DNA from: a virus | Direction: 5' to 3' (one strand) | IMG/VR virus record: IMGVR_UViG_3300042507_005574 | DNA length: 64,000 bases | Shown here: positions 5,091-57,402 of the stretch, in pieces | Layout: each line of letters starts with the position of its first letter | Position numbering within the stretch: position 1 is the stretch's first letter | Notes under the pieces: generated by a model | Database searches by the model: none | What the model was told of the DNA's origin: nothing | The model's input: the letters and a program-made list of their open reading frames with translations, nothing else | Position numbers and translations under genes: made by a program

Positions 5091-5663
5091 ATGGAACACA
5101 TCTACAACATGCCAAATTTTGGTCAAAACTGGTTCACTTATCCAAAATTATATTCTTGGTTCGTGCATCAAATGGAAAATGGTTCAAGAATAGTTGAAGT
5201 TGGTGCATGGAAAGGAAAGAGCATTGCTTACCTAGCAGTGGAAGTTATTAACTCAGGTAAAGATATCAAAATCGATGCAGTCGATACATGGGAGGGATCG
5301 CTTGAAGAGATTGACCATCTTCAGGATGTTTATGTTAAAACGGGGAGACTGTATCAATTATTTTTGTCCAATATCGCTCCTGTTTCTAGTGTTGTGAATC
5401 CTGTAAAGATGAAGTCTGTGGATGCTGCTAAGATGTACGAAGATAATTCTATCGATGTTGTATTCATCGATGCTTGCCACACATACGAGTGTGTCAAGGA
5501 GGACATTCTTGCATGGTATCCAAAAGTTAAAGTTGGTGGTTACATATCAGGACACGATTACTCTTGGAGCGATGATGTTCGTAGGGCAGTTGACGAAACA
5601 CTTAAGGAACTTGGTAAGATCGATGAAACCGAGGGGTGTTTTGTGATGAAGAAATTATCATAA
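5091..5663 (+). CDS. Class I SAM-dependent methyltransferase (Methyltransf_24-like), copy 1
   Basis: VEVGAWKGKS, AVDTW, VFIDACHTYE and GGYISGHDY motifs. Confidence 0.85.
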   Translation: MEHIYNMPNFGQNWFTYPKLYSWFVHQMENGSRIVEVGAWKGKSIAYLAVEVINSGKDIKIDAVDTWEGSLEEIDHLQDVYVKTGRLYQLFLSNIAPVSSVVNPVKMKSVDAAKMYEDNSIDVVFIDACHTYECVKEDILAWYPKVKVGGYISGHDYSWSDDVRRAVDETLKELGKIDETEGCFVMKKLS

Positions 5664-5785: not shown

Positions 5786-6346
5786 ATGGAACACATTTAC
5801 GAACAACCACAATTTGGCGAAAACTGGTTTTCATTTCCCAAACTCTACTCTCGCTTTGTTCATGAACTTTCAAGTGGGTCAAAGATTGTTGAAGTTGGCT
5901 GTTGGAAGGGAAAGAGTTTGGCTTATCTAGGCGTAGAAATTGTCAACTCGGGAAAATCGATTTCCGTAGATGCGGTGGATACATGGGATGCATTGGATAC
6001 TGAGTATTATCACAAGACAGATACCTATGTGTTGTCGAAATGCTTGTACCCACTATTTCTGAGCAACATCGCTCGTCTGAGCCACATCATTAAGCCCGTT
6101 CGAATGAAGTCTTTGGACGCTGCAAACCTATACGAAAATGAATCATTGGATGTAGTCTTCATTGACGCATGTCACGAATACGAGTGTGTCAAGGAGGACA
6201 TCAATGCATGGCTACCGAAGGTGAAGAAAAATGGCTATCTATCGGGACATGATTACAGTAGCCATCCATCTGTTGCTCAGGCAGTACACGAACTGCTTGG
6301 CTCAGTTGAGAGTGGTGAAAATTGTTGGGTCTATCGAAAGCCTTGA
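5786..6346 (+). CDS. Class I SAM-dependent methyltransferase (Methyltransf_24-like), copy 2
   Basis: Paralogue of 5091-5663 (MEHIY, VEVGCWKGKS, VFIDACHEYE, LSGHDY). Confidence 0.85.
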   Translation: MEHIYEQPQFGENWFSFPKLYSRFVHELSSGSKIVEVGCWKGKSLAYLGVEIVNSGKSISVDAVDTWDALDTEYYHKTDTYVLSKCLYPLFLSNIARLSHIIKPVRMKSLDAANLYENESLDVVFIDACHEYECVKEDINAWLPKVKKNGYLSGHDYSSHPSVAQAVHELLGSVESGENCWVYRKP

Positions 6347-6355
6347 TAAATCCCC

Positions 6356-6384
6356 TTGCTTTTTGTGTGTTAATGTGGTATAAT
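6356..6384 (+). promoter_or_regulatory. Sigma70-like promoter of gp41
   Basis: TTGCTT-17nt-TATAAT with extended -10 TG. It overlaps the ORF-track start 6383, so the real start is probably ATG 6395. Confidence 0.6.
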
Positions 6385-6394
6385 GATGGAATCC

Positions 6395-7807
6395 ATGACA
6401 GACAAAATCGAATTCGTTGTACTTCGTAACTTGTTGTACAATGAAGATTATACAAGAAGAGTTCTGCCCTTCCTAAAGAAGGAGTACTTCCATGACCCAT
6501 GTGAGAGAAGACTATTTGAATGTGTTGAAGAATTCATTCAGAAGTATTCCTCTTCTCCAACTACAGAAGCGTTGAATATCATTCTCTCCGAGCAAGATGG
6601 CGTTTCTCAGGGTGAATATGACAATTGCACAAAGATTCTTGATTCACTTAATCAATGCAAAGATACACAGAATGAAATCGACTGGCTGATCGACCAAACT
6701 GAAAAGTTTTGTAAAGATAAAGCAGTTTACAATGCATTAATGGATTCTATCCAACTACTTGATGAAAAGAAGTCGAAGGGAAAGTCAAGGAATGCAATTC
6801 CAGAAATTCTCACTAAAGCATTGAGCGTTTCATTTGATGCTAGTATTGGTCATGACTTCGTTGAGGATGCAGACAAAAGATTTGAATTCTATCATCGGGT
6901 AGAGCAAAAGACTCCTTTTGATTTGGACTATTTGAACAAAATTACAAATGGTGGAGTTCCAAACAAAACTCTAAATGTGATCCTTGCGGGTACAGGTGTA
7001 GGTAAGAGTCTGTTCATGTGTCATCATGCAGCGTACTGTTTGACCATGAGTAAGAATGTCCTGTACATTACATGCGAAATGGCGGAAGAAAGAATCGCAG
7101 AAAGAATTGATGCAAATCTAATGGATATTGCGGTCGATGATCTCAAGTCTCTTCCGAAAGACATTTACGACAAGAAATTATCAAAAATTTCATCGGGAAT
7201 GACCGGCAAATTAATTATCAAGGAATATCCAACAGCAACGGCGAGTGTTGACCATTTCCGTCATTTACTAGATGAACTTAGACTCAAGAAGAACTTCAAA
7301 CCCGATGTCGTTTTCATAGACTATCTTAATATTTGTGCCTCTAGTAGATTTAAAGCGGGTGCGAATGTTAACTCCTACACCTATATCAAGGCAATCGCTG
7401 AAGAACTAAGAGGACTTGCAGTTCAATTGGACTTCCCTATCTTCACCGCAACACAAACGAATAGATCGGGATTTTCAAATACTGATGTGGAACTAACTGA
7501 TACATCGGAGTCATTCGGTCTACCAGCAACAGCGGATTTGATGTTTGCTATTATTGCAACCGAGCAACTTGATGAGTCGGGACAAATCATGGTGAAGCAA
7601 CTAAAGAACAGATATAATGATCCAACTCTTCACCGAAGATTCATTTTAGGTATTGACAGATCTAAGATGAAACTGTATGATGTGCAAGAAGATGACCAAG
7701 TACTGTTTGAGCAAATGGGAAAGGGATCAGAATCTGTCGATGATGAGGAAGACATGAGTAAGTTCAAAATCAAGAAGCCCAGATCTTTGTCAGGTTGGGG
7801 AGAATAA
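6395..7807 (+). CDS. 41: T4-like replicative DNA helicase gp41 (DnaB family)
   Basis: Walker A LAGTGVGKS, YITCEMAEE, FIDYLNI, TATQTNRSG, SESFGLPATAD and QLKNRY motifs. Start moved from 6383 to 6395. Confidence 0.95.
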   Translation: MTDKIEFVVLRNLLYNEDYTRRVLPFLKKEYFHDPCERRLFECVEEFIQKYSSSPTTEALNIILSEQDGVSQGEYDNCTKILDSLNQCKDTQNEIDWLIDQTEKFCKDKAVYNALMDSIQLLDEKKSKGKSRNAIPEILTKALSVSFDASIGHDFVEDADKRFEFYHRVEQKTPFDLDYLNKITNGGVPNKTLNVILAGTGVGKSLFMCHHAAYCLTMSKNVLYITCEMAEERIAERIDANLMDIAVDDLKSLPKDIYDKKLSKISSGMTGKLIIKEYPTATASVDHFRHLLDELRLKKNFKPDVVFIDYLNICASSRFKAGANVNSYTYIKAIAEELRGLAVQLDFPIFTATQTNRSGFSNTDVELTDTSESFGLPATADLMFAIIATEQLDESGQIMVKQLKNRYNDPTLHRRFILGIDRSKMKLYDVQEDDQVLFEQMGKGSESVDDEEDMSKFKIKKPRSLSGWGE

Positions 7808-7808
7808 A

Positions 7809-8060
7809 ATGCCTTACAGAATTCACATTGACATTCCGATTGAATCTGTTAGCGTTGACGATGCTCAGATTGAAGCAAAGGACATTCTCGCAAAGTTAGG
7901 AATTCTGATTGCAGATAATCCTCAATTGATAGGATCTGACTTGGAAATCAACTACAGACTTGGACATGATGATGATCGACAGCGTTCGAACTATCTTGAC
8001 ATGGATAAAATGGGCCATTGCACCCACAGGAAAAACCGTGTCAAATTCGCAAATGGGTAA
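7809..8060 (+). CDS. Hypothetical protein
   Basis: 83-aa ORF tightly coupled to the gp41 stop, with RBS GGAG. Confidence 0.65.
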   Translation: MPYRIHIDIPIESVSVDDAQIEAKDILAKLGILIADNPQLIGSDLEINYRLGHDDDRQRSNYLDMDKMGHCTHRKNRVKFANG

Positions 8061-8307
8061 TGGAGAGTGTCCATCTTGCCCTAAATGTGGCTGTGCAACA
8101 ATTCGTTCACGGCAAGATCTTTCTTTCGAAATTGGTGGTGGAGAAATTAGAACAGAACCTTTAGTTAGTGCCACAATTGTCATGAATGTTCCGATCTTTC
8201 AATGTATAAATCCTAGTTGTAGGAACGGAATGTATGGAGAAGAAGCAGAAAAAATCATGGAGCCTATAAAGAAAGTATTGACAAAACACGCAGTAGTTAA
8301 AAGTTAA
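8053..8307 (+). CDS. YgiT/MqsA-type zinc-finger protein
   Basis: CPKCG...NVPIFQCINPSC. ATG 8053 overlaps the previous stop and is preferred over the ORF-track start 7960. Confidence 0.6.
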   Translation: MGNGECPSCPKCGCATIRSRQDLSFEIGGGEIRTEPLVSATIVMNVPIFQCINPSCRNGMYGEEAEKIMEPIKKVLTKHAVVKS

Positions 8308-8312
8308 AATTT

Positions 8313-8383
8313 GTGCCGTGGGAGGTCAGCATCTCAGGTCGGCTTATACCCGAGCAACACAAGGGCAGCACTTGTACGGCATA
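8313..8383 (+). tRNA. Atypical tRNA-Ile(UAU) or tRNA-like RNA
   Basis: Cloverleaf: acceptor GTGCCGT/ACGGCAT, D-stem GAGG/TCTC, anticodon stem TCGG/CCGA with loop CTTATAC (anticodon TAT, 8345-8347), T-stem ACAAG/CTTGT. The T-loop is non-canonical (GGCAGCA) and no CCA is encoded. Confidence 0.7.
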
Positions 8384-8427
8384 TTAAGATAGTTTATATC
8401 TCGCTTCAGGCGAACAGAAACAACAGA

Positions 8428-8434
8428 ATAAATA
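8428..8434 (+). promoter_or_regulatory. T4-type late promoter
   Basis: ATAAATA 26 nt upstream of ATG 8460. Confidence 0.55.
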
Positions 8435-8459
8435 ATTGACTAACCCAAAGGAATAGGGA

Positions 8460-9674
8460 ATGCTGTCATTTACACAATACAATCATGAGATAATCCAAGA
8501 GGAAACTGCTAGAAATAAACACTTGGATCATATCGAAGATTTGATGATCCTTTACGGACAAAAGGGATTAGATGACTCAATAGCATTCCTCAAGGATATA
8601 ATCGAAAGCCTAAAAACCGGAAATACTAGTTTGGGAGTTTCCACCAAATGGGATGGGAAGCCTGCAATCATTTGTGGCGAAAACCCTGATAATGGTAAAT
8701 TCTTCGTATCGACAAAGTCTGTTTTCGGTGCTAAAGAGCAAAAAGCATATCATACGGAGGCTGAACTTAAAAAATCTGGATTGCCTTCTGATTTGATTGA
8801 TAAGATGGCAGTGTGTTTGAAAATGCTTACTAAGGTTGGTATTGGCAAGAGAATTTTGCAAGGCGATTTGATGTTTACTGCCGATATGAAAAAGGCAGTA
8901 AATATCGATGGTAAGCCACATATAGGATTTCAGCCAAACACAATCATGTACGCTGTTCCAAAGAATAGTGATATTGGGTCGGCAATCTCTTCAGCAAAAT
9001 TAGGAATCGCATTTCATACTGAATATAAGGGAGACAGTCTGAAGTCTATTCAGGCAGTATCTTATAATTTCAATTCCAAGGTTTTAAAACAAACAAGTGA
9101 GGTTTGGGTAACAGATCCAAACATCTACGATCTCTCTCCTGCCCTTATGAAGGGCGGCGAATCAGAGATGGCAATCAGGATGCTCAAGGAATGCGAAGCC
9201 CTAGCATCTAAAGTGAGGCCGTTTATCAAGACTCTAATCGCACAGAAAGAGATAGCAGAAACTTATTTACTGCCTTATGTCAATAGTACAATCAATGGCG
9301 GAATGAGCAATTTCAATGCATCCAGTCTCAAACTAAACATCAAAGGTAAGTTTGAAAAGGACATAAATAAACTAAAAACCGACAAAGCCAAGCAAGCAAA
9401 AACTGAATTAATGCAGAAGCAATTAGATTTCGTTGATGCGTATTCAAAGCAGATCGATCAAATGTTTGAACTTCACAATAAAATTGCCAACATCAAAGAA
9501 ATTCTTTTGCGTAAACTGTATGCCATTTCAACCCTAGGTCATTTCTTCATGGATGAGAATGGAATTCGCCCAACAAATCCTGAAGGTATTGTAATCTATC
9601 GATCAGGATCGGTGATTAAACTAGTTAATCGTTTAGAATTTAGTAAACAAAACCGAATGGTGAATCAGAGGTAA
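8460..9674 (+). CDS. Conserved T4-like phage protein (DUF6267-like) with ligase/nucleotidyltransferase motifs; probable head-internal protein
   Basis: STKWDGKPA (KxDG, motif I), LQGDLMF (III), PEGIVI (IV), IKLVNRLEF (V). The N-terminus MLSFTQY...IQEE resembles a capsid-targeting sequence. Confidence 0.6.
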   Translation: MLSFTQYNHEIIQEETARNKHLDHIEDLMILYGQKGLDDSIAFLKDIIESLKTGNTSLGVSTKWDGKPAIICGENPDNGKFFVSTKSVFGAKEQKAYHTEAELKKSGLPSDLIDKMAVCLKMLTKVGIGKRILQGDLMFTADMKKAVNIDGKPHIGFQPNTIMYAVPKNSDIGSAISSAKLGIAFHTEYKGDSLKSIQAVSYNFNSKVLKQTSEVWVTDPNIYDLSPALMKGGESEMAIRMLKECEALASKVRPFIKTLIAQKEIAETYLLPYVNSTINGGMSNFNASSLKLNIKGKFEKDINKLKTDKAKQAKTELMQKQLDFVDAYSKQIDQMFELHNKIANIKEILLRKLYAISTLGHFFMDENGIRPTNPEGIVIYRSGSVIKLVNRLEFSKQNRMVNQR

Positions 9675-9675
9675 A

Positions 9676-12600
9676 ATGCTTAACTTCTCAGACCGCAATA
9701 ATCAGATTGATGAAGCGAAAAAAGATAGTGTAGTTTTTGCATTCGGTAGAATGAACCCACCAACTATCGGCCATAAGGTAGTTGTGGATAAAGTTCTAAG
9801 TGAAGCCGCAGCAAAGGGAGCAGATCATTTTATCTTTGTGTCTAAAACTCAGGACACCAAAAAAAATCCACTCAGTCAAAAGTCAAAGATCGATTATCTG
9901 AAGAAGTTGTTTCCGAAGGTTAAGTTTCCTTTTGGTAAATCGACAAATCCATTCGATACTGTTTTGTATCTCTGTGAACTAGGATATAAAAACATCTATG
10001 TGGTCACAGGAAGTGATCATGTTGCAGAATACAACCGTATTAAGGAATACAAAGGTAAAGTAGCGACAAACGATCCAAAAAAGCGGTCGTACTCATTTGA
10101 TAATCTTGAGGTCATAGTTGCAGGCAAGGCAAGAGTTAAAGTTACTCTTGATATGATAGATGATATGCTCAAGAAGGGTCAACAAGTTGATCCTATGTAC
10201 ATGTCTGCATCTCTTATGCGTGAAGCGGCATTTAAGGACCGATTTGATATATTCTCAATCGGCATTCCTGGAAATAAAACTCTTGCACAGAGTTTATGGA
10301 AAGATGTTCGTAAAGGTATGAGTTTGAAAGAGGACTTTGATCTTTTAAATGAGGCAACCAAAAAAGAGGATGTGACAATCATCGCTCTCACATCATCAGA
10401 AAAAGATTTGAGTGATACCATAGAAAAAACTGAAGCGATCTGCAAAAGGCGTAAGATAAAATTCTATCCTGTAAAAACAAGCAAAGCACAGGTAGAAATA
10501 TCAAATGTCGCTTCGAAGAAGATTACTATAAAGAACTACGATGGAGAGGGAAAAGATGTAACCATCGTTCCAGAGAACACAGTTGCAATCGTTCGTGGTG
10601 GTGTGATGAACACCGAAATTGGTGTAGCCATTATGACGATCTTACAGAATAATGGTGTGTTCATGGTAAACGAAAGAGCGGGTATGGAACTGTGTGCCAA
10701 TAAGTTGGAAACGGCTATCGCACTCAAGAAACACGGTTTGCCTCACCCACGCACGGCTTTCGTCGCAAATGAAGAGAATATCGAATCGGCTGTCAAGGAA
10801 GTCGGAGGTAAGTTTCCGATCATCTGTAAGACCCTTACAGGCGCAGAAGGAATCGGTGTGTCCAAAATTGAGAGCATGGAAAGTCTCAAGTCTGTGCTAC
10901 AGACATTATGGAAGTATGGTGCAGAGATCATCATCCAAGAGTTTCTTCCTGAATTCAAGAATGATGTTCGTAGCATAGTACTCAACGGGAAGATATTTGC
11001 ATGTGCCAAAAGAGACAAAGCACCTAAAGACTTCCGAACCAATATTGCCCGTGGCTCTAAGGGCGGATCACATCAATTGTCTGACGAAGAGATTAAACTA
11101 GTTGAGCAAGCCGCACGGGTCAGTAAATGTTTCTATGTTGGTATAGACCATGTTATCAACGATGGTAAGCCATACATCATTGAAATGAACGCAAGTCCAG
11201 GTAGTGGAAATATCTATTATCGTTACTATGAGGATGGCGAAGGTAAAGATAATGTTAAAGGTGAAGAACTTGTAGAAGACTTTGTGGAATACATTCTCAA
11301 CAAGGCACATTGGAAACTATTTTCGAATCTTGCTGTTCGTGAGAATGTTAAGGTCGATGGCAATGAATATACCGCAAAGATCGATACTGGAAATAGCGGT
11401 TACAATATGATTCATGCCGACAACATAAAAGATAATGGTGACCACACCGTTTCATTTAAGTTAGCAGACGGTAAGAAGATTACGAAGAAGATTGTCAGCA
11501 GAATCAAAGTTAAGAGTGGCATCGGGGAGAAAGAAAGAATTGTGGTTTTCATGGACATTGAGTTCCATGGTAAGAGATATCCGAACATCAAATTCAGCCT
11601 TGGTGACAGAAACCATATGTCAACCAAGGTTCTTCTTGGACTGAGATTCCTTGAGAAGACTGGCTATGTTGTTGATCCAGCAAACGCAATATATCCACAA
11701 CCAGATGTCAAGAAAAAAACATCAGGGGAAGAGGAAGAAGAAGAGGAACTATCTGAAAGTATCATTCCTAAAGGCAAAGCAAATATTGCGGGTGCCTTAT
11801 TTAAAGTGATGACCACTAAAGAAATGGTTGGGAAAATATTTGAACTATCCAAACTGTGGAAATCCAACTCAGTTGAGTTCAAGAAAAAACTACAGGATCT
11901 TGAGACAGAAATAGTGATTGACTACAATAAGTCTTTAGAAACGGGAGCAAAAACTGCTTTTTTTGTAGATAGATTCAAGTTACAGAGCATCATTGATAGG
12001 ATTTTGTATAAAATGCTTGATGTCGCTGGTGTAGATTTACAGACATATGTGGCTAAATTGTCTTCAGTATTTGGATCTCAATTAACCATGGGATATTCAA
12101 TCGACGGAGAATCAATACAAGAAGCCGATATTACTAAGGGGAAAAAATTCTACACGAAGAGTGGAAAGATTAAGGCATCCCCAAAAGATAAAAAGACTGG
12201 ATTGCCAAAGAAGTATGTCTCTGGATTATCGAAGCGAGAGGCTGAACTTCGAAAGAAGAGACTTGCAAAGCGTAAGGATATGTCAGATGACGATCCGAAG
12301 ACTTGGGAGTTTGTTAATCCTAGAGAAAAGAATATCAAGACTAAACCTTCGAAATATACGACTGCTTTCAAGAAACTTGCCAAAAAAGGTAAATTGAAGG
12401 TAGAAAACAAAAATGAAATAAGAGAGTCTCTTTCTGCTATTAAGGCATTTGAGAATCTTGATTATATGACGAGAATGAACAGAGCCATAATGCTTGAGCA
12501 AAAGGCGATTCAAAACGGTAAAACAGATTCCGCAAAAATTTACCGATCATTTATAGAATATGAAAAGGACTTAAGATATAGAAATTACAAAGTTGATTTA

Positions 12601-13389
12601 GATATATCTGAAGAAATAGAATCTCTTCTTTATGAGGTGAGTCCTCCATCTGGTCCTGCTCGTCGCTTTTCAAAGAAGGAAAAAATTAAAAAGCAGTTTC
12701 AGAAGAGATACGGTAAAGACTGGAAAAGAGTTTTCTACGCTACAGCATGGAAGATGCACGGAGAGGAAGTAGAGTCCACCCGATGGCTTAATGAATCGAA
12801 GAAGATCAATGCAACCATGCAATGGACTGCTATCGGTAAGAGGGGACCTCTTCTGATCGGCTCTGACGAAATCGTCAAGACCTACAAGAAAGACACCCCT
12901 GGTGAGCGGGAGCGATTGGGTGAAGATAAGCCTTGTTGGGTAGGGTTTAAACAATTGGGAATGAAGACAAAGAATGGAAAAAAAGTTCCTAATTGTGTGC
13001 CTGTGAAGGAAGATACTTCTGAAGAAGAGAAGTCTGCGCTTTACAAAGAGTGGCAGAAATTAGTGAATATGTCCGGCAAAGAAATACAAAGTTTTCTTGA
13101 CTCAGAAGAGGGTAAAGAGGCAGGACTATCACGAAAAGAAGCAGGCAAGGCAGGAGCAGATGGGGGTAAAATTACAAGTGGAAGAGATTCTGCCCGGGCC
13201 ATTATTCGTATGCTTGATACTCCCAAAGAGGACTGGACGGCAAATGATTGGAAATGGGCGAGTAAGCAAGTCAGTTTCATCAGTAGAATGCAAGGTGTGA
13301 AGGGCGGTATGAGGGATGAGAAAGGTCATCCAACCCGAAAACTTCTTGCTCTGAAAGTTTGGGGTCATAATCCGGAGAGGAAATCATGA
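9676..13389 (+). CDS. Multi-module protein: HxGH cytidyltransferase-like NTase + RimK-family ATP-grasp ligase + RimB-like (aspartic-type) protease + several small phage modules + C-terminal DUF3140-like domain
   Basis: NTase: FGRMNPPTIGH and MSASLMR (~9724-10320). RimK: CANKL, PRT, KTLTGAEGIGV, IIQEF, DFRTNIARG, GID, IEMNASPG (~10370-11310). Protease: AKIDTG...FSLGDR..M...VLLG (~11330-11690). Then a 7xE tract, PCWVG...VPNCVP, and VNMS...WGHNP at the C-terminus. Confidence 0.8.
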   Translation: MLNFSDRNNQIDEAKKDSVVFAFGRMNPPTIGHKVVVDKVLSEAAAKGADHFIFVSKTQDTKKNPLSQKSKIDYLKKLFPKVKFPFGKSTNPFDTVLYLCELGYKNIYVVTGSDHVAEYNRIKEYKGKVATNDPKKRSYSFDNLEVIVAGKARVKVTLDMIDDMLKKGQQVDPMYMSASLMREAAFKDRFDIFSIGIPGNKTLAQSLWKDVRKGMSLKEDFDLLNEATKKEDVTIIALTSSEKDLSDTIEKTEAICKRRKIKFYPVKTSKAQVEISNVASKKITIKNYDGEGKDVTIVPENTVAIVRGGVMNTEIGVAIMTILQNNGVFMVNERAGMELCANKLETAIALKKHGLPHPRTAFVANEENIESAVKEVGGKFPIICKTLTGAEGIGVSKIESMESLKSVLQTLWKYGAEIIIQEFLPEFKNDVRSIVLNGKIFACAKRDKAPKDFRTNIARGSKGGSHQLSDEEIKLVEQAARVSKCFYVGIDHVINDGKPYIIEMNASPGSGNIYYRYYEDGEGKDNVKGEELVEDFVEYILNKAHWKLFSNLAVRENVKVDGNEYTAKIDTGNSGYNMIHADNIKDNGDHTVSFKLADGKKITKKIVSRIKVKSGIGEKERIVVFMDIEFHGKRYPNIKFSLGDRNHMSTKVLLGLRFLEKTGYVVDPANAIYPQPDVKKKTSGEEEEEEELSESIIPKGKANIAGALFKVMTTKEMVGKIFELSKLWKSNSVEFKKKLQDLETEIVIDYNKSLETGAKTAFFVDRFKLQSIIDRILYKMLDVAGVDLQTYVAKLSSVFGSQLTMGYSIDGESIQEADITKGKKFYTKSGKIKASPKDKKTGLPKKYVSGLSKREAELRKKRLAKRKDMSDDDPKTWEFVNPREKNIKTKPSKYTTAFKKLAKKGKLKVENKNEIRESLSAIKAFENLDYMTRMNRAIMLEQKAIQNGKTDSAKIYRSFIEYEKDLRYRNYKVDLDISEEIESLLYEVSPPSGPARRFSKKEKIKKQFQKRYGKDWKRVFYATAWKMHGEEVESTRWLNESKKINATMQWTAIGKRGPLLIGSDEIVKTYKKDTPGERERLGEDKPCWVGFKQLGMKTKNGKKVPNCVPVKEDTSEEEKSALYKEWQKLVNMSGKEIQSFLDSEEGKEAGLSRKEAGKAGADGGKITSGRDSARAIIRMLDTPKEDWTANDWKWASKQVSFISRMQGVKGGMRDEKGHPTRKLLALKVWGHNPERKS

Positions 13390-13646
13390 AATATTACGAC
13401 AACCTAATTAAAAACATTAATGAGGCAAGAATTGCTGGATTGGAAAAGAAATCAAAACAAAGTGGAATTTCTTATGGAATTTTGAAACAAGTATTCGATA
13501 GAGGCATGGCTGCATGGAAAAGTGGACATAGACCTGGAACAACGCCTCAACAATGGGCTTTTGCCAGAGTTAATTCATTTATTGTTGGCGGCAAAACTCG
13601 TAGAACCGCAGATAAAGATTTGTGGAAAAAAGCAAAGGGCGGCTAA
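13386..13646 (+). CDS. Small basic protein, DUF5824-like C-terminal half
   Basis: GISYGILKQVFDRGMAAWKSGHRPG..QQWAFARVNSF...ADKDLW; CTS-like N-terminus MKYYDNLIKNINE. Confidence 0.6.
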   Translation: MKYYDNLIKNINEARIAGLEKKSKQSGISYGILKQVFDRGMAAWKSGHRPGTTPQQWAFARVNSFIVGGKTRRTADKDLWKKAKGG

Positions 13647-13648
13647 GA

Positions 13649-13655
13649 CTAAATA
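13649..13655 (+). promoter_or_regulatory. Late promoter CTAAATA
   Basis: Intergenic, 30 nt before ATG 13685. The motif recurs before many structural genes. Confidence 0.65.
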
Positions 13656-13684
13656 TTGATACCTAACTTCCCGGGGGAGAAAAA

Positions 13685-15337
13685 ATGGCAGTATTCTATT
13701 GGGTCGGCGGATATACAGGTTATACAGGTCCAGAAAGTGGATATAACACAACAGGTTCATATTGGACTAACTATGTTACGGGACTAACCACCTCGTATGG
13801 AGATGTATTTTATTCACCGTATGCATGGGATATTCGTCAAAACTGGAGGTTGGAGCACACTGGCCAACAACAACCTACTGATCCTGAAATTAGAGTGATT
13901 AGAGATTCAGTACCAACGAGATTACCTAAGGGTGGTGATGATGTCATCATAGGTGGAGTTGCTGCATATATTGGAACCGGACCTTATGGTGGGGGCAGCA
14001 CATCCTCAGGTGGAGCGTCTGGCGGTGGATCGGGACAGTTCTTAAGTTCACCATTAATATTTACGCCGAATATTGCACCGAATAATTTTTCACTTTTATT
14101 CGGAGGAATGTCTGGTGATGGAATCACCTCTGCCGGATTAACCGCTTGGAAAGAAGGCGGATCAACTAAACTGGCTTCATTTACAGTTAAACCATATTTC
14201 ACAAGACTTGATAAAACCATTAATTTTGGAGCATCTGGCAGCAGTATATCAATAAGAACGGGAGAGATTGGAAGTTGGGGACTCTCTTATTTGTGGGGAA
14301 ATTCAGTCCCTTCAGATTTTACTGGTGCCGCTCTTGGTAGAGCATTGACTCTTGTTAGTAATCCGATAAACTTAATTTTGGCTGATACTAACAACAACTG
14401 TTTTGTAAACAGATTACAATCTTCAAGAAGTGCAACGGGTGGAGCAGTTATTCATATCAAATCTATGAATTATGATGCTGGTTTTACTTCTGTAAGTTTT
14501 AATATGCACGGTAGATTTGGAGCAGGTTATACTGCTTCAGTTTGGGGGACAAATGAAACTTCTGCAATCAACCACTACTTAGTGCCAAGAGGAGAATGGG
14601 ACAGAGTATTGAATGATTGTGCAAATACAGAAATGAGTAATGTGGTCTGTAATTTTGTGAGGCACGGTGGATTCAGTTGGGATCGAGCGACGGGGTATTT
14701 CTCATCAGACAGAACTGCAAATATCAATGAATTTTTCATTTCATCAACTACAATAAATGGATCGAATAATAAAACTGGTGTTAATATAGAATGTTATGAA
14801 CAGGCGGCAGTTGGAAAGATTCTTGCTATAGGTTGGAGAAATCAAAGCCCAACTAACTGTATGACAATAGGAAATCTCGGTGGAATACCGTCAACAGTGA
14901 ATCAACTGTTAACTGTCTATACTGGAATCGGTATTTCAGGAAATCCTTATTTCGATTATCAATTTCCGCTAAACGCATGGAAAGAATCATATCCTTGGAG
15001 CATCAGTAATTGGTGGACTGGACCAATAGTAATGATAAGAAACTGTTTTGTGGAAGATCTAATTCATGGTGGTGGAGTGATCTTAGCAGATCCAAATTCG
15101 TCTGCGAATGATTATGTCATTCTGAAAGATGGCTTTATGGATTATCCGGCTCAAATAATATGCAAGAATTTTGAAAATCCTCAATGGAAAAATTTCTTAC
15201 TTGGATATTCCCCCAACTCAGACCTGGGAATTGGTGTAAGAACAAGAAATATTTCAAGTTCTTATTTAAACACTTACGCTAAACGGTATTTCATGATTCC
15301 GTATGATGGTCAAGGAACAACTATAACTAGAGACTGA
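13685..15337 (+). CDS. Putative virion structural protein (G/S/T-rich, beta-rich), paralogue of 15384-17045
   Basis: Shares YWVGG.TGYTG..SGY, PY.W....NWR, LP.GGDD and L.GGMSGDG.T blocks with the next gene; late promoter. Confidence 0.55.
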   Translation: MAVFYWVGGYTGYTGPESGYNTTGSYWTNYVTGLTTSYGDVFYSPYAWDIRQNWRLEHTGQQQPTDPEIRVIRDSVPTRLPKGGDDVIIGGVAAYIGTGPYGGGSTSSGGASGGGSGQFLSSPLIFTPNIAPNNFSLLFGGMSGDGITSAGLTAWKEGGSTKLASFTVKPYFTRLDKTINFGASGSSISIRTGEIGSWGLSYLWGNSVPSDFTGAALGRALTLVSNPINLILADTNNNCFVNRLQSSRSATGGAVIHIKSMNYDAGFTSVSFNMHGRFGAGYTASVWGTNETSAINHYLVPRGEWDRVLNDCANTEMSNVVCNFVRHGGFSWDRATGYFSSDRTANINEFFISSTTINGSNNKTGVNIECYEQAAVGKILAIGWRNQSPTNCMTIGNLGGIPSTVNQLLTVYTGIGISGNPYFDYQFPLNAWKESYPWSISNWWTGPIVMIRNCFVEDLIHGGGVILADPNSSANDYVILKDGFMDYPAQIICKNFENPQWKNFLLGYSPNSDLGIGVRTRNISSSYLNTYAKRYFMIPYDGQGTTITRD

Positions 15338-15383: not shown

Positions 15384-17045
15384 ATGAACTACTACTGGGT
15401 TGGTGGACACACAGGATACACAGGTGCAAATAGTGGTTATAGTGGAGGGCTTTGGTTTAAACCCGGTTCAGTAACTGGCGGAATCACAGCCGGAGATCTA
15501 TACTTCGGACCTTATTCATGGGGTGTTGTAGAAAACTGGAGAGTCATTGAAATAAGTGATGCCATATCAGGTCTTGCTATTTATGGGATTCCAACGCAAC
15601 TGCCGCAGGGAGGTGATGATTCGGCATTCTTTGGAAAAGTTGTAAATGCTTACACTATTTCTGGAGATTCTACTGGAAGTTCTATACTAAATCCCCACAT
15701 GTATTCTTGCTTATATGGAGGTATGTCTGGAGATGGATTTACTGCATCTTCGGCAACTGGATGGGCAGGAAACAACGGAGCAGCAAGATTTCAGCCAATT
15801 GATATAAGAGTAGACAAATCATTTATTCCAGGAAGCACAACGGGTCTTCTTTTAACTGATTTAGGGAGAATAGGTGCGATTGGAATCACATCAGATAATC
15901 CTCTTCGGGTTTATCCTGGAAATACTGTTATATTTGAAAAGGCATCTGAAACTGTTGGTGCCAACATTTCTCTGAGAAGTATGTTCACTTCTAAGAGTGT
16001 TATTCAGAGTTATTCTAATGATTCTAGACTAAATCCATCTGTGGCACTTGCTTCGGATGGATCTCCTGATAATCCCGTAGTCAGTTTGGGAAGAAAATTA
16101 AAAGTAGACTTAAAGGGCGGATGGTCAAGAGTTCGCCAAGATGCAGGAACTCTAGTATTAGGACAGATGTTTACAACAAATCTTCCCGGTTATCCAGATG
16201 CGTTCGGAATAACATGGGCAAATCAACCAGCCAGTGTATTGGTTGATGGAAAAATTAGAAAATTCCTTGCTAAAGAAGATAGCAGCGTTCACTACTATAT
16301 GATTAAACCGGGATCTGTGCTTGAAGGTGTTGAGATTATTGGCAGATCTTCATTCCCTCTATCTGCAACTCATGGTCCTAATCCATCGATCATTAGAGTT
16401 TCAGGGTGGGCCGGTATGTCCGAACCTCTTTCTTCTACTGGTGGCTCAGGTAATGTAGGAACTCGTCCGCAAAATGGTATAATTTTAGGTAAAATTCCCA
16501 CAACCAACGGTCTGACTGCTGGATTACCTTTCTACATTGAAGATCTTCATATAGATAATTTCCTTAATAGTTCAGTTTTCGGAGGAACGCATCCGCCGAA
16601 TGTTTGGCTTGCAAATACTGAAATTAAAGAGTTTAAGGGAGTGGCGGGAAGAGCAATCCCCCTGACAAATGACCCCTATAACACTCCGAATAGAGTTCGC
16701 ATTAAGAATGGATTCTTGATGAATGGGTTTACTCTTGAAACTTCTGATGCATATATTGGTGCCCAAGATGGTCTTGTGAGTTTGGTAGTGGGTATCACAA
16801 ATACTTCAGGATTTAGCGGTGCCTACGCAACTGGAGTGGCTTCGAACATTGGACTCACGACAATAAGTGGTTCAATTTATGGTCTAAGATACGATAATGT
16901 ATCTCCTTTTGGAACTCAAGGTTTTCCTCCTGTTTGCACGATAACATATCCATCCTTCTTTGATGAAGGAATCATTGGGGCAACTGCATATGTCAGAACT
17001 TGGAATACAACATCACTTCAAAGACCCGCAAGTGATCCTGATTAA
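15384..17045 (+). CDS. Putative virion structural protein, paralogue of 13685-15337
   Basis: Same N-terminal blocks as the previous gene; RBS GGAG. Confidence 0.55.
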   Translation: MNYYWVGGHTGYTGANSGYSGGLWFKPGSVTGGITAGDLYFGPYSWGVVENWRVIEISDAISGLAIYGIPTQLPQGGDDSAFFGKVVNAYTISGDSTGSSILNPHMYSCLYGGMSGDGFTASSATGWAGNNGAARFQPIDIRVDKSFIPGSTTGLLLTDLGRIGAIGITSDNPLRVYPGNTVIFEKASETVGANISLRSMFTSKSVIQSYSNDSRLNPSVALASDGSPDNPVVSLGRKLKVDLKGGWSRVRQDAGTLVLGQMFTTNLPGYPDAFGITWANQPASVLVDGKIRKFLAKEDSSVHYYMIKPGSVLEGVEIIGRSSFPLSATHGPNPSIIRVSGWAGMSEPLSSTGGSGNVGTRPQNGIILGKIPTTNGLTAGLPFYIEDLHIDNFLNSSVFGGTHPPNVWLANTEIKEFKGVAGRAIPLTNDPYNTPNRVRIKNGFLMNGFTLETSDAYIGAQDGLVSLVVGITNTSGFSGAYATGVASNIGLTTISGSIYGLRYDNVSPFGTQGFPPVCTITYPSFFDEGIIGATAYVRTWNTTSLQRPASDPD

Positions 17046-19088: not shown

Positions 19089-19565
19089 ATGCGTAAATTC
19101 AAGGAACTCAGAAAAACGATTTCAGAAACATCAACTGGTCTTGATATTTCTGGAATTAATCGTCCTAGAGTTGGTCCTATGGATAGTGATAATGGAATAG
19201 ATTTCAACCAAAATCTTTCACAACTAAACCCATCGGAAGTTGATAGAATTAACATGTTTTTAGGTGCTTTGTCGGCAAAACCTTATCTTGATCCGAATCA
19301 GGCAATCAAGGAAGCACAAAGTAAATTGTCAACTGTTGGACTTCAATTCAACCTTAGCAATAATGATGATTTGAGAAAGAGTGGAGAAAGAATTTACCCA
19401 CTAAGTTTGTTTGGCGGATCATTCGGATCTGATGGTAAAACCTATGGCACATCAACTGACGATAACATTGAGCGTAAAATTGGATATAAGTTAGGATTAA
19501 TGGTAACATCTGTTCCGACATCAACAGGCATGACGAGTCTCAAAGCAGAAATAATGCCCATGTGA
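19089..19565 (+). CDS. Hypothetical protein with CTS-like N-terminus
   Basis: MRKFKELRKTISE; RBS AGGA. Confidence 0.6.
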   Translation: MRKFKELRKTISETSTGLDISGINRPRVGPMDSDNGIDFNQNLSQLNPSEVDRINMFLGALSAKPYLDPNQAIKEAQSKLSTVGLQFNLSNNDDLRKSGERIYPLSLFGGSFGSDGKTYGTSTDDNIERKIGYKLGLMVTSVPTSTGMTSLKAEIMPM

Positions 19566-20807: not shown

Positions 20808-21833
20808 ATGGCGCAGTTCATAGACACCAAGTTTATAAACTTACTGTCCCCGAGACTTGAGCGGTTTCACTGGAAGAAGCCAAATTTGGCGACATGCCGC
20901 TGCCCCATCTGCGGGGATTCGGCAAAAAACAAACGAAAAGTTCGATTTTATTTCTATGAGAAGAATGGCAATTTCTTCGTTAGATGCCACAACTGCGATT
21001 ACGGAACAACTCTAGGCGGACTACTTCGTTACTTAGATGGTAATCTTTACAGACAGTACTCATTTGAAAATCTAAAAGACAAAGAGAGCGGCAAATCCTT
21101 CACCAAAAGGATCATTGCTGTGAAGCAAGATATCGTTTTGCCTGAGAATGAAGTTCTCAACAAGATGCCAAAATTGTCAAACCTGTCTAACTCGCATCCT
21201 GCTGTTGTTTGGGCCAAAGACCGAAAAATTCCTAAGTCAAAACTTAATTTACTTCATTACGCAGAGAACTTTGCTGAATGTGTATCTGATATTGATCCTG
21301 ATGCAAAAGTGGGGGATGACCAAAGAATCGTAATACCCATTTTTTCAAGAGGGGGGTCTCTTGTCGGAGTGCAGGGTAGAGTTCTTGATAAAAGCCAAGG
21401 CAGGAACATTAGATATTTGACGATCAAGGCAAATAAAGAAGGAGAACGGCTTTGGTATGGACTTGAGAGAATAGATCCGGATAAACCTCTGATAGTTGTT
21501 GAGGGTCCGATTGATAGTTTGTTTCTATCGAATAGTGTGGCAATGCTGGGTCTGTCAGATCCACTAAACATTCCTGTTGGAGTTCCAACAGATAAATTGG
21601 TATATGCTCTTGATAATGAACCTAGAAACAAACAAGTCGTGGATGCTGTGGCAAATCTCATAGATGCAGGTAGATCTGTTTGCATTTGGGATTCTAGAGT
21701 TGGTGGAATCAAAGATATCAATGACATGATTCTTAGCGGAATTCACGCTGCTCAAATTGAATCGATAGTGAGAGAACGAACACTATCAGGACTTTCTGCT
21801 AAACTTGCCTTGGAGTCATGGAAGCGTGTCTAA
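20808..21833 (+). CDS. 61: T4-like DNA primase gp61
   Basis: Zn ribbon CRCPICGDS...CHNC, GVQGR, TOPRIM VEGPIDSLF, LDNEPRN and KDINDM. Confidence 0.95.
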   Translation: MAQFIDTKFINLLSPRLERFHWKKPNLATCRCPICGDSAKNKRKVRFYFYEKNGNFFVRCHNCDYGTTLGGLLRYLDGNLYRQYSFENLKDKESGKSFTKRIIAVKQDIVLPENEVLNKMPKLSNLSNSHPAVVWAKDRKIPKSKLNLLHYAENFAECVSDIDPDAKVGDDQRIVIPIFSRGGSLVGVQGRVLDKSQGRNIRYLTIKANKEGERLWYGLERIDPDKPLIVVEGPIDSLFLSNSVAMLGLSDPLNIPVGVPTDKLVYALDNEPRNKQVVDAVANLIDAGRSVCIWDSRVGGIKDINDMILSGIHAAQIESIVRERTLSGLSAKLALESWKRV

Positions 21834-22142: not shown

Positions 22143-22847
22143 ATGATTCCAAATATGATTCCTGTTCTAGGGGCAGGATTTGTTCAATATGTTGATCACA
22201 TGGGAAGCGACTTGACGGTCGTAAATGCTGCCCGAGTCTCTTTCAACAAAGAAAGTGAATGGGAACATCCAGATAGCCATGTCCCTGCCAATATTCTTTC
22301 GGAAAAAGATAAGAAGTTAATCTATTATCTTGCAAAGCATAATCACTGGACTCCATTCGCACATCCACAGATTACTTTGCGAATCAAGGCTCCAATTTCA
22401 ATTCGCACACAACTATTTAAACACAAGCAGGGATTCGTAGAAAACGAAGTATCTCGCCGCTATGTTTCGGATTCACCGGAATTTTATTTGCCCAAATGGA
22501 GATCTAAGCCATCTAATGGTGCAAAACAAGGTAGTGAGGATTTCATCGATGATCAGCAGCGTATTGAACACTTTAACGATCTTTATAGCCAAGTTATTTC
22601 GAAGGCTCATGGATACTATGAATTCTTGATTGAACAAGGTGTGGCCCCTGAACAAGCGAGGTTTATTCTTCCTCAGGGAGCATATACGGAATGGTGGTGG
22701 ACTGGAAGTCTTGCAGCATATGCTAGAGTATATTCTTTAAGATCGGATCCCCATGCTCAATGGGAAGTTAGATCTTATGCCCAAGCCATTTCCAATATTA
22801 TTAGTTCGATATATCCTGAGTCTTGGAACGCTCTAACTTGTCAATAA
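22143..22847 (+). CDS. thyX: Flavin-dependent thymidylate synthase
   Basis: VNAARVSF, HWTPF, QLFKH...NEVSRRY, EQARFILP and HAQWEVR motifs. Confidence 0.95.
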   Translation: MIPNMIPVLGAGFVQYVDHMGSDLTVVNAARVSFNKESEWEHPDSHVPANILSEKDKKLIYYLAKHNHWTPFAHPQITLRIKAPISIRTQLFKHKQGFVENEVSRRYVSDSPEFYLPKWRSKPSNGAKQGSEDFIDDQQRIEHFNDLYSQVISKAHGYYEFLIEQGVAPEQARFILPQGAYTEWWWTGSLAAYARVYSLRSDPHAQWEVRSYAQAISNIISSIYPESWNALTCQ

Positions 22848-22865: not shown

Positions 22866-24866
<2,001 letters not shown>

Positions 24867-43296: not shown

Positions 43297-43335
43297 TTGC
43301 TATTAGCACAATGGTGCTGTATCATGGTCTAAATA
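43297..43335 (+). promoter_or_regulatory. Tandem sigma70-like and late promoters upstream of nrdJ
   Basis: TTGCTA-17nt-TATCAT (with GCTG before the -10), then CTAAATA at 43329-43335. Confidence 0.5.
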
Positions 43336-56814: not shown

Positions 56815-57402
56815 TCACTCCATTAAATCTTCTAGATTTTGCTTGGTAGATTTACGCTTACGCCTTTTCTTCTTGATCACCTTGTTTTCTGAAGTGCCTT
56901 CGAAATTTCTGACATCGTTATCACTGAGTGAAAAATAATCAGCATAAGGATTTTCACTTTTAGGTTCCGAATCAGATAACTTACTATCTTCCATCATTCT
57001 ATTTCTGAATTTTCCAGTTTTATCAGAATTTTCGAAACACTTCATTTTGACAAAGAGTTGCTTCTTCTCTTTCATTATTCTACGAAGAAATGCGTAGTAA
57101 ATTATTTGAGTAAAAAAGGCAAAAGGGTTCTTTGATTTCTTTTCGTCAAAATTTGTGGTGTACATTATACAATTTTCAATGCCATCGGATATCATCTCCT
57201 CTTTGAAAATGTAATTAGCAAAATTGGGTTTCTTCGCTAAGTTGAGTGCGATATCTAAAAAGCACTGTCCAATATAATTGGACACACCTGGAGGCTTTTC
57301 TCCATTTTTCTTTGCTTTGGTGTGTAATTTTTTATGTTCAATAAGTTCCTCTAGGAACTTTTGATTGTCGATATAGTGATTTTCTTTTTTTCTTTTAGCC
57401 AT
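56815..57402 (-). CDS. 55: Late transcription sigma factor gp55
   Basis: HYIDN, KPNFANY, EMISDGIENC and NPFAFFTQIIYYAFLRRI..EKKQ. Confidence 0.95.
   Translation of the reverse strand: MAKRKKENHYIDNQKFLEELIEHKKLHTKAKKNGEKPPGVSNYIGQCFLDIALNLAKKPNFANYIFKEEMISDGIENCIMYTTNFDEKKSKNPFAFFTQIIYYAFLRRIMKEKKQLFVKMKCFENSDKTGKFRNRMMEDSKLSDSEPKSENPYADYFSLSDNDVRNFEGTSENKVIKKKRRKRKSTKQNLEDLME

Follow-up and report, generated by a model that had tools for sequence, protein, structure and literature searches.

The internal proteins of phage T4 are the textbook case of proteins that are injected together with phage DNA, and the cargo known for them comprises one ADP-ribosyltransferase besides small inhibitors. 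For the encapsidation of T4 IPIII, its first ten residues suffice; within the T4 leader, residues 4 and 7 are responsible for targeting and residues 8 and 10 for processing, and gp21 cuts after L/I-x-E (PMC9026906). In cyanophages, the "cytidylyltransferase" (T4-GC190) is a core gene whose product is detected in virions (PMC3037559), and CsCl-purified virions of S-SZBM1 (ORF140 and ORF139 downstream of it; PMC9146016), S-SCSM1 and S-CBWM1 (PMC9602691), and S-CREM2 (PMC10665884) were later shown to contain homologs; the authors of these proteomes already suggest that this protein enters the host with the DNA (PMC9146016, PMC9602691, PMC10665884). RimB was shown to be a DTG retropepsin that trims the poly-Glu of S6, cleaves an E8 linker at an internal position and stimulates RimK in poly-Glu synthesis (Little et al., PMC11957791). 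Here, these systems are compared with a locus in a 64,000-nucleotide stretch of viral DNA (IMG/VR record IMGVR_UViG_3300042507_005574; hereafter, the window). Positions 8313-13646 of the window comprise a 71-nucleotide cloverleaf, an NTAAATA late promoter motif and three contiguous genes, P0001, P0002 and P0003, which encode proteins of 404, 1237 and 86 amino acids, as proposed in a preliminary description made from the letters alone; the P0002 and P0003 genes overlap by ATGA. We estimate at roughly 60% the probability that the module proteins are carried in the virion and injected, which is the best-supported reading of this locus.

P0001, P0002, P0003 and the 158-amino-acid product of another gene of the block (Table 1) share an N-terminus that starts with M-x-x-[FY] and has [IL]-x-E within residues 8-15. 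This pattern is present also in the orthologs, at 53-94% identity, so that the capsid-targeting-like N-termini ascribed to the three proteins in the preliminary description are conserved features. Comparable leaders are found in cultured relatives, namely Syn9 gp184 (MKKFSAFLSE↓A), Melnitz 15 and 18, and S-SZBM1_140, which is detected in virions. All predicted pieces of the module proteins are basic, with isoelectric points (pI) of 8.8-11.2. Late expression and head packaging, both part of the preliminary description, are indirectly supported by the late motif, the presence of a gp55 gene, the leaders, the basic pI, synteny together with Rosetta-stone fusions, and virion mass spectrometry of homologs. 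By analogy with T4, the leaders would mediate prohead targeting and be cleaved off, and injection would follow. The annotated DUF6267 gene of S-SZBM1 (S-SZBM1_141, positions 11478-12671 of the related record L015) starts at the conserved KNTHLEHLED core without a leader, and upstream there is space for at most a short extension with a non-ATG start, given an in-frame stop 23 codons away. Therefore, leaders are not universal in the DUF6267 family.

The anatomy of P0002 was drawn from 50 non-redundant relatives. Residues 14-236 match the "cytidyltransferase" family phrog_3041 (E-value 3e-42), and the residues that are invariant in 37 sequences (G24, R25, N27, P28, P29, T30, G32, H33 and R182) fit the (H/T)xGH and ISxTxxR-type motifs of the HIGH superfamily. 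The score with the Pfam profile CTP_transf_like is 16 bits, under the cut-off of 21, which homologs pass. A search of PDB with the single nucleotidyltransferase sequence gave no match, and a profile search gave weak, generic HIGH-family matches (MJ0951, 1.8e-4; PPAT, 0.08-0.11; NMNAT, 0.24-1.3). The RimK domain scores 148.1 bits against TIGR00768, the RimK family (cut-off 143.4), and 77.6 bits against the S6-ligase equivalog NF007764, for which the cut-off is 331; its best PDB matches are the RimK entries 7qyr and 5zct, from Pseudomonas and E. coli. The RimB-like domain reaches 37.8 bits with PF05618 (gathering score 27) and 25.5 with the RimB equivalog, which requires 200, and its DTG (residues 569-571) lies within an alignment block of 0.84 mean conservation among the 50 relatives. 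Thus, the nucleotidyltransferase, RimK ATP-grasp, RimB-like protease and small modules listed in the preliminary description were all recovered; its HxGH motif was not, the actual motif being T-I-G-H. These comparisons indicate that a RimK-RimB cassette is inserted into the nucleotidyltransferase gene in this clade, yielding a predicted 140-kDa polyprotein.

The C-terminal part of P0002 and the virion protein S-SZBM1_139 have a CWxG[FY]K..VPxC module in common, and an examination of gene order showed that S-SZBM1_139 is the gene after the cytidylyltransferase in that cyanophage. A model of residues 821-1237 has a mean predicted local distance difference test score (pLDDT) of 69.7 and a predicted template modeling score (pTM) of 0.34; a Foldseek search of PDB with this region gave no meaningful match, and a protein atlas search retrieved DUF3140 phage clusters only. 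The counterpart of P0003 in HTVC008M and in phrog_3041 is the C-terminus of a longer "cytidyltransferase".

Two internal junctions of P0002 resemble processing sites. At the boundary of the nucleotidyltransferase and RimK domains, the sequence LLNE↓ATKKED copies the N-terminal leader pattern IDE↓AKKD, and the [LI]xE of the SLKE/LLNE junction is conserved in 94% and 70%, respectively, of the 50 relatives. About 20 residues past the retropepsin, a run of four to nine Glu residues (E4-E9) with (L/I)xE directly after it is present in 68 of 91 relatives. This tract is absent from the fusion clade at 40-55% identity, and the stand-alone RimK-RimB proteins of Mosig and YerA41 likewise lack a Glu run. 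An obligate role of poly-Glu as a primer was considered and rejected, given that these stand-alone proteins do not end in poly-Glu.

P0001 matches Pfam family DUF6267 (E-value 1e-88) and phrog_455. The family comprises about 2,150 clusters at 50% identity and, among cultured phages, is nearly confined to Kyanoviridae, where the annotation is always hypothetical. Eight residues are invariant in 80 diverse members (K63, D65, G66, D136, E375, G376, K387 and R391). The AlphaFold model has a pLDDT of 93.9, with a disordered leader of 14-16 residues (residues 1-16). An exhaustive comparison of this model with 48,161 PDB representatives places RNA and DNA ligase adenylyltransferase domains in all of the top 12 positions (Z scores 8.7-6.6, middling by the tool's own calibration; 176-203 residues aligned; root-mean-square deviation about 4 Å); among these are Naegleria RNA ligase (5cot), fungal Trl1, REL1, T4 Rnl2 and Rnl1, archaeal RNA ligases and DNA ligases. 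Foldseek gave weak hits only, none at E<=0.001, and searches of PDB with a single DUF6267 sequence and with the profile returned chance-level matches only. The model and the invariant KxDG, which bear out the KxDG ligase-like protein of the preliminary description, point to a ligase-like protein in which K63 would be the catalytic residue.

The late promoter motif upstream of P0001 is the NATAAATA motif defined for cyanomyoviruses (PMC2984593). On the + strand of the window, 10 of 20 [ACT]TAAATA sites lie 14-36 nucleotides upstream of a gene start, compared with about 0.4 expected by chance, the corresponding upstream intervals making up about 2% of the window sequence; ATAAATA as such is depleted (8 sites vs 15.9 expected). 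In five relatives (L008, L009, L010, L011 and L013), TAAATA is found within 44 nucleotides upstream of the DUF6267 ATG, and in HTVC008M, Melnitz and Syn9 the homologous block likewise opens with a gene that has the late motif in front of it. Scans around 7700-8600 and 13300-13800 detected neither a sigma-70 promoter nor an intrinsic terminator. With a gp55 gene in the same window, the late promoter of the preliminary description is well corroborated, and the module genes are likely to be transcribed late. Another CTAAATA (43329-43335) lies 31 nucleotides upstream of the ribonucleotide reductase gene (43360-45321), a gene for which early or middle expression would be expected; the motif may lack full specificity, or this gene may have dual promoters. 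Dual promoters have been reported for cyanophages. The motif AATAAATA also precedes the gene for a collagen-repeat tail-fibre-like protein (22866-24866), located after thymidylate synthase (22143-22847), and overlaps the upstream stop codon.

The window represents DNA of a T4-like aquatic myophage with relatives among Kyanoviridae; by both DNA and protein comparison, the closest cultured relatives are the Pelagibacter phages HTVC008M and Mosig, the Methylophilales phage Melnitz and cyanomyoviruses, all of them Kyanoviridae. In T4-like aquatic myophages related to this family, the block is flanked by the genes for a gp41-type helicase and a gp61-type primase. Other genes of the window encode tail fibres, ribonucleotide reductase, gp46/gp47, UvsW, UvsY and the gp55-like late sigma factor. 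The full P0002 fusion was found in no cultured phage; in metagenomes, it forms 421 protein clusters, of which dozens align from end to end at 60-94% identity, and the contigs are up to 182 kb long. The order helicase, (tRNA), DUF6267, fusion, DUF5824 is retained among relatives at 53-94% identity and recurs across many metagenomic contigs of 150-180 kb, in line with the synteny that the preliminary description had anticipated. DUF6267 always adjoins the nucleotidyltransferase or is fused with it, as in some relatives; in the protein P0214, DUF6267, nucleotidyltransferase, RimK and RimB form a single chain.

The element at 8313-8383 can be folded into a cloverleaf with stems of 7/4/4(+1 mismatch)/5 base pairs, in which 20 of 20 pairs are canonical, but its elbow is aberrant: the D-loop has 6 nucleotides (TCAGCA) and lacks GG, the T-loop reads GGCAGCA, and no CCA is encoded. 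ARAGORN detects no tRNA anywhere in the window, and Rfam gives no tRNA match to the window even at E<=10, so that the element was recognized only through comparison with relatives. In L008, L009 and L010, a canonical tRNA-Ile(tat) occupies the homologous slot between the helicase and DUF6267 genes, and the element aligns with it through the D-stem and anticodon arm. It is very hard to credit that the cloverleaf is just a decaying tRNA pseudogene or a chance fold, even if the two programs make no call, the folding z-score is only -2.1, and the minimum free energy structure (-24.7 kcal/mol, vs -18.9 for the cloverleaf) is a different fold. Apart from the orthology with a genuine tRNA-Ile(UAU), the odd form is identical at 71 of 71 positions in 13 other contigs, whereas the flanks of the identical element in L011 and L023 are only 74-76% (coding DNA) and 52-54% (spacer) identical. 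At 75% per-site identity, 71 matches would occur with a probability of about 1e-9; the element is thus either under strong constraint or recently exchanged, not decaying. To judge from this conservation, 8313-8383 constitutes a gene in its own right, derived from tRNA-Ile(UAU) and maintained by selection; ATA accounts for 28% of the Ile codons in the window. The same slot contains no tRNA in L013, L025 and L026 and is occupied by protein genes in cultured relatives, and the element is therefore treated here as a neighbor rather than a component of the protein module. Thus, the cloverleaf of the preliminary description is real, whereas its inclusion in the module is probably incorrect. Just 3' of the element, there is a hairpin (8398-8416, TCGC..GCGA) whose counterparts in L006 (8724-8741) and L012 read CTCCA..TGGAG; the changes preserve pairing and no T-run follows, and the hairpin may be a processing or termination signal. 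In L010, the tRNA-Ile(UAU) and DUF6267 genes are separated by an inserted HNH endonuclease gene (8250-8759).

Taken together, these observations are probably best explained by a late block encoding head-internal cargo, with RimK-RimB insertion and junction processing. The leader would dock each protein on the prohead core, after which a gp21-type prohead protease would remove it. The DUF6267 ligase-fold protein, the HIGH-superfamily nucleotidyltransferase with its basic C-terminal modules and the DUF5824 protein would constitute the cargo inside the head, and the mature basic proteins would remain with the DNA and enter the host together with it. The P0002 polyprotein would be cut at LLNE↓A after the nucleotidyltransferase and at poly-Glu plus LSE after the retropepsin, by gp21 and/or its own retropepsin. 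As far as can be predicted from family membership, RimK might then build alpha-linked Glu tails at the C-terminus of a protein and RimB trim them, or the pair might produce free poly-Glu, and the ligase-like protein and the nucleotidyltransferase might adenylylate nucleic-acid or nucleotide substrates. The "translation takeover" via S6 and the RNA or cofactor repair proposed in the preliminary description are no more than conceivable outcomes of such activities.

Several observations weigh against this explanation. The leader is short, and one fusion subclade has F-S-E in place of (I/L)-x-E; within P0002, [LI]xE is only mildly enriched (20 observed vs 13.3 +/- 3.3 expected). A gp21-type protease was not matched in the related records, which are 17-29% fragments; gp21 is among the homologs of coliphage T4 structural proteins in cyanophage virion proteomics (PMC3037559). 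The virion data pertain to cyanomyovirus homologs of the nucleotidyltransferase and of the C-terminal part of P0002, not to this clade, and the proteome authors caution that soluble proteins, when abundant, may be carried along in virion purification (PMC10665884, PMC9602691). The stand-alone RimK-RimB gene of Pelagibacter phage Mosig lies in the replication module, beside regA and DNA polymerase. Finally, the ligase assignment of DUF6267 depends on middling Z scores, and hhalign finds no match between DUF6267 and T4 Rnl2 (probability 0.1).

Some of these facts would also fit proteins that are not packaged at all. As cytoplasmic enzymes of the late or middle class (products of auxiliary metabolic genes), they would act in the infected cell, e.g., on nucleotide/NAD-type cofactors and translation, and their homologs would be detected in virion preparations only as abundant contaminants. 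Beyond the authors' caveats and the position of the Mosig gene, the cytidylyltransferase peptide counts are low (2-3 peptides; PMC9146016, PMC10665884), and in the YerA41 record the remark "present in phage particle" is attached even to ribonucleotide reductase. The label "structural protein" for YerA41 gp066, which comes from the same record, was accordingly set aside as support for RimK packaging. However, different laboratories detected the homolog in at least five phages, independently of one another. Four distinct protein families of the block have conserved, disordered leaders in which (I/L)xE occupies an equivalent position, a late promoter lies before the genes, and every predicted piece has a basic pI; we consider this alternative rather doubtful. 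A different question is the target of the RimK-RimB pair, which could act on the phage's own proteins instead of the host ribosome. RimK extends C-terminal Glu residues. If the retropepsin cut the poly-Glu linker, the exposed oligo-Glu C-terminus would prime RimK to build a poly-Glu tail or free poly-alpha-glutamate, and the product could serve as an internal polyanion or a cargo regulator. This possibility is in accord with the presence of the tract close to the retropepsin in most relatives and its absence from stand-alone forms, as well as with the reported RimB activities on E8 linkers and on RimK (PMC11957791); nevertheless, it appears unlikely, given that one clade has the same fusion without the tract and that the (L/I)xE site after the tract is usable by gp21 alone.

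The structural neighbors of DUF6267, which include nick-sealing and tRNA ligases (5cot, Trl1, REL1, T4 Rnl2 and Rnl1), its constant association with the nucleotidyltransferase, and the designation of the latter as NMNAT-like in the cyanophage literature (PMC9602691) bring to mind an RNA-repair or counter-defence kit. The two enzymes would reseal or re-cap tRNAs or other RNAs cut by host anticodon nucleases, or restore a depleted cofactor, e.g., NAD+, with the neighboring tRNA-like gene as part of the same strategy. Such a kit seems distinctly unlikely: no end-healing kinase or phosphatase partner was seen in the block, the NMNAT match is not significant, and the tRNA-like gene is missing from its slot in the relatives mentioned above. 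Quite improbable, finally, is a scenario that combines all these elements in a virion-delivered, self-processing polyglutamylation device. Its retropepsin would cut its own poly-Glu linker, and the injected RimK/RimB would rewrite the tail of S6 (or another protein with a C-terminal Glu) within seconds, before phage gene expression; the co-injected ligase-like enzyme and nucleotidyltransferase would act on RNA or cofactors, and the elbow-less tRNA-Ile(UAU) derivative would serve AUA-rich phage genes or act as a decoy.

Downstream of the module, the gene of DUF5824 and the remaining block are separated by two adjacent paralogous 550-amino-acid proteins (13685-15337 and 15384-17045, starting with MAVFYWVGGYTGYTG and MNYYWVGGHTGYTG, respectively) that have no PHROG match and are each preceded by a late-type motif or spacer. 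In L006, L007 and L012, this slot contains one long open reading frame (956 amino acids, or cut by the contig end), and in L008, L009, L010, L011 and L013 it lacks such a large open reading frame. In L010, DUF5824 is directly followed by a phage lysozyme with a start, MKTFIQHVNE, that resembles the T4 capsid-targeting sequence. Upstream of the helicase, tandem paralogs of 190 and 186 amino acids (5091-5663 and 5786-6346) match the same part of the DNA methyltransferase family phrog_2675; they come after a cluster of glycosyltransferase-like and epimerase-like genes that varies among relatives.

Table 1. Predicted features of the module and of its surroundings in the window (arrows mark putative cleavage points)
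Feature	Coordinates	Strand	Remarks
gp41-type helicase	6383-7807		
Non-canonical tRNA-Ile(UAU)-derived element	8313..8383	+	acceptor, D, anticodon and T stems; loop CUUAUAC
T4/cyanophage-type late promoter motif, AATAAATA = NATAAATA	8427..8434	+	25 nucleotides before P0001 ATG
P0001: DUF6267, ligase-like (covalent nucleotidyltransferase fold), leader MLSFTQYNHEIIQE	8460..9674	+	Pfam, model, structure comparison
P0001, K63-W-D-G66, motif I candidate	8646..8657	+	invariant in 80 relatives
P0002, whole gene	9676-13389	+	
P0002 leader, residues 1-13, MLNFSDRNNQIDE↓A, capsid-targeting-like	9676..9714	+	IxE site; T4 rules (PMC9026906)
P0002, HIGH-superfamily nucleotidyltransferase (cyanophage "cytidyltransferase"), residues 14-226	9715..10353	+	GRMNPPTIGH, MSASLMR
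P0002, junction SLKE/LLNE↓ATKKED	10330..10353	+	nucleotidyltransferase/RimK boundary
P0002, RimK-family alpha-L-glutamate ligase (pre-ATP-grasp and ATP-grasp), residues 227-540	10354..11295	+	Pfam RimK, 3e-30
P0002, RimB-like retropepsin, residues 557-671, DTG at 569-571	11344..11688	+	PF05618, NCBIfam RimB/RloA3-like
P0002, poly-Glu tract (E7) then LSE, residues 685-694	11728..11757	+	candidate cleavage junction
P0002, variable insert, residues 695-816	11758..12123	+	present in about half of relatives
P0002, basic C-terminal helical modules, residues 817-1237	12124..13389	+	weak DUF5824-like segment first
P0002, CW..C ribbon-like insert	12919-13041	+	within C-terminal modules
P0002, DUF3140/DUF6321 end	13048-13386	+	highly conserved
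P0003: DUF5824, small basic protein, leader MKYYDNLIKNINE↓A	13386..13646	+	DUF5824, E-value 1e-18; pI 10.4
Following late promoter motif CTAAATA	13649..13655	+	opens next late gene
158-amino-acid block protein, matching leader MRKFKELRKTISE↓T	19089..19565	+	
gp61-type primase	20808-21833		
gp55-like late sigma factor	56815..57402	-	phrog_234, E-value 8e-53

The new elements of this locus are the RimK-RimB insertion, the poly-Glu/LxE junction, the ligase-like fold of DUF6267 and the conserved elbow-less tRNA-Ile(UAU) derivative. The novelty claimed in the preliminary description has to be narrowed: work on cyanomyoviruses has already reported the nucleotidyltransferase as carried in virions, whereas no paper was found that describes a virion-linked RimK/RimB fusion. 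Here, signals resembling those of T4-type delivery are carried by a multi-enzyme protein of 140 kDa, which occurs widely among uncultured T4-like phages in lakes and seas. If packaging is true, protein polyglutamylation and its removal join the host-takeover chemistries delivered by virions, the "cytidylyltransferase", a cyanophage core gene product and virion protein, gains a testable role together with DUF6267, and the poly-Glu junction lends itself to a straightforward biochemical test. A curiosity in its own right, for tRNA biology, is the conserved tRNA-Ile(UAU) derivative, which lacks the elbow nucleotides of the D-loop and T-loop. It has the genomic slot and anticodon loop of the phage tRNA-Ile(UAU), and a similar anticodon arm, but differs from it in the D-loop, in a T-loop that does not conform to TTCRANY, in the G at position 8 and in one G-G mismatch of the anticodon stem.

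Comparison with known systems reveals partial similarities in each case. With the ATP-dependent RNA ligases (Naegleria Rnl5, 5cot; Trl1 LIG; Trypanosoma brucei REL1; T4 Rnl2/Rnl1), DUF6267 appears to share the adenylyltransferase fold (Z scores 8.7-7.0 over 180-200 aligned residues) and the motifs KxDG, EG.V and a basic, motif V-like K..R, all three invariant; it differs in a helical insert of about 130 residues between the sheet and motifs IV/V, and in the lack of detectable sequence-profile similarity. P0002 has the multi-domain build of the polyvalent proteins (Iyer et al. 2017, PMC5512222), which combine many unrelated enzymatic domains in one virion-linked polypeptide with a predicted early action after entry. 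Pfam and PHROG scans found none of the MuF, ART and zincin companions of these proteins, and a full-text term search of that paper gave no RimK, DUF3140 or "HIGH nucleotidyltransferase", its mentions of ATP-grasp/ligase referring to RNA ligases only. The RimABK system of Pseudomonas and the RimBK hybrid of Desulfotalea (PMC11957791) likewise combine a RimK-family ATP-grasp and a DTG retropepsin in one system, and the poly-Glu sequence of P0002 is a potential RimB substrate. The order in P0002 is RimK then RimB, not RimB then RimK as in the Desulfotalea hybrid; compared with RimABK, RimA is missing, the pair forms part of a phage polyprotein, and both domains score below the RimK and RimB equivalogs.

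The closest counterparts are found among phages. T4 IPI-III and Alt resemble the module proteins in the short leader with an aromatic position 4 and (I/L)-x-E, in the predicted late expression, in basic character and, as regards Alt, in the presence of enzymes among the cargo; the mature parts, however, are unrelated in sequence, and the cargo predicted here from the genes is far larger (140 kDa) and multi-enzyme. The cyanomyovirus T4-GC190/NMNAT-like protein and its neighbors (Syn9 gp183-185, S-SZBM1 139-141) have the homologous nucleotidyltransferase, the DUF6267 neighbor, the position between gp41 and gp61 and the leaders in common with this locus, and they are detected in virions by mass spectrometry. 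The cyanomyovirus proteins are 360-650 residues long, without RimK, RimB or a poly-Glu junction. In the clade described here these have been added and DUF5824 is split off as a separate gene.

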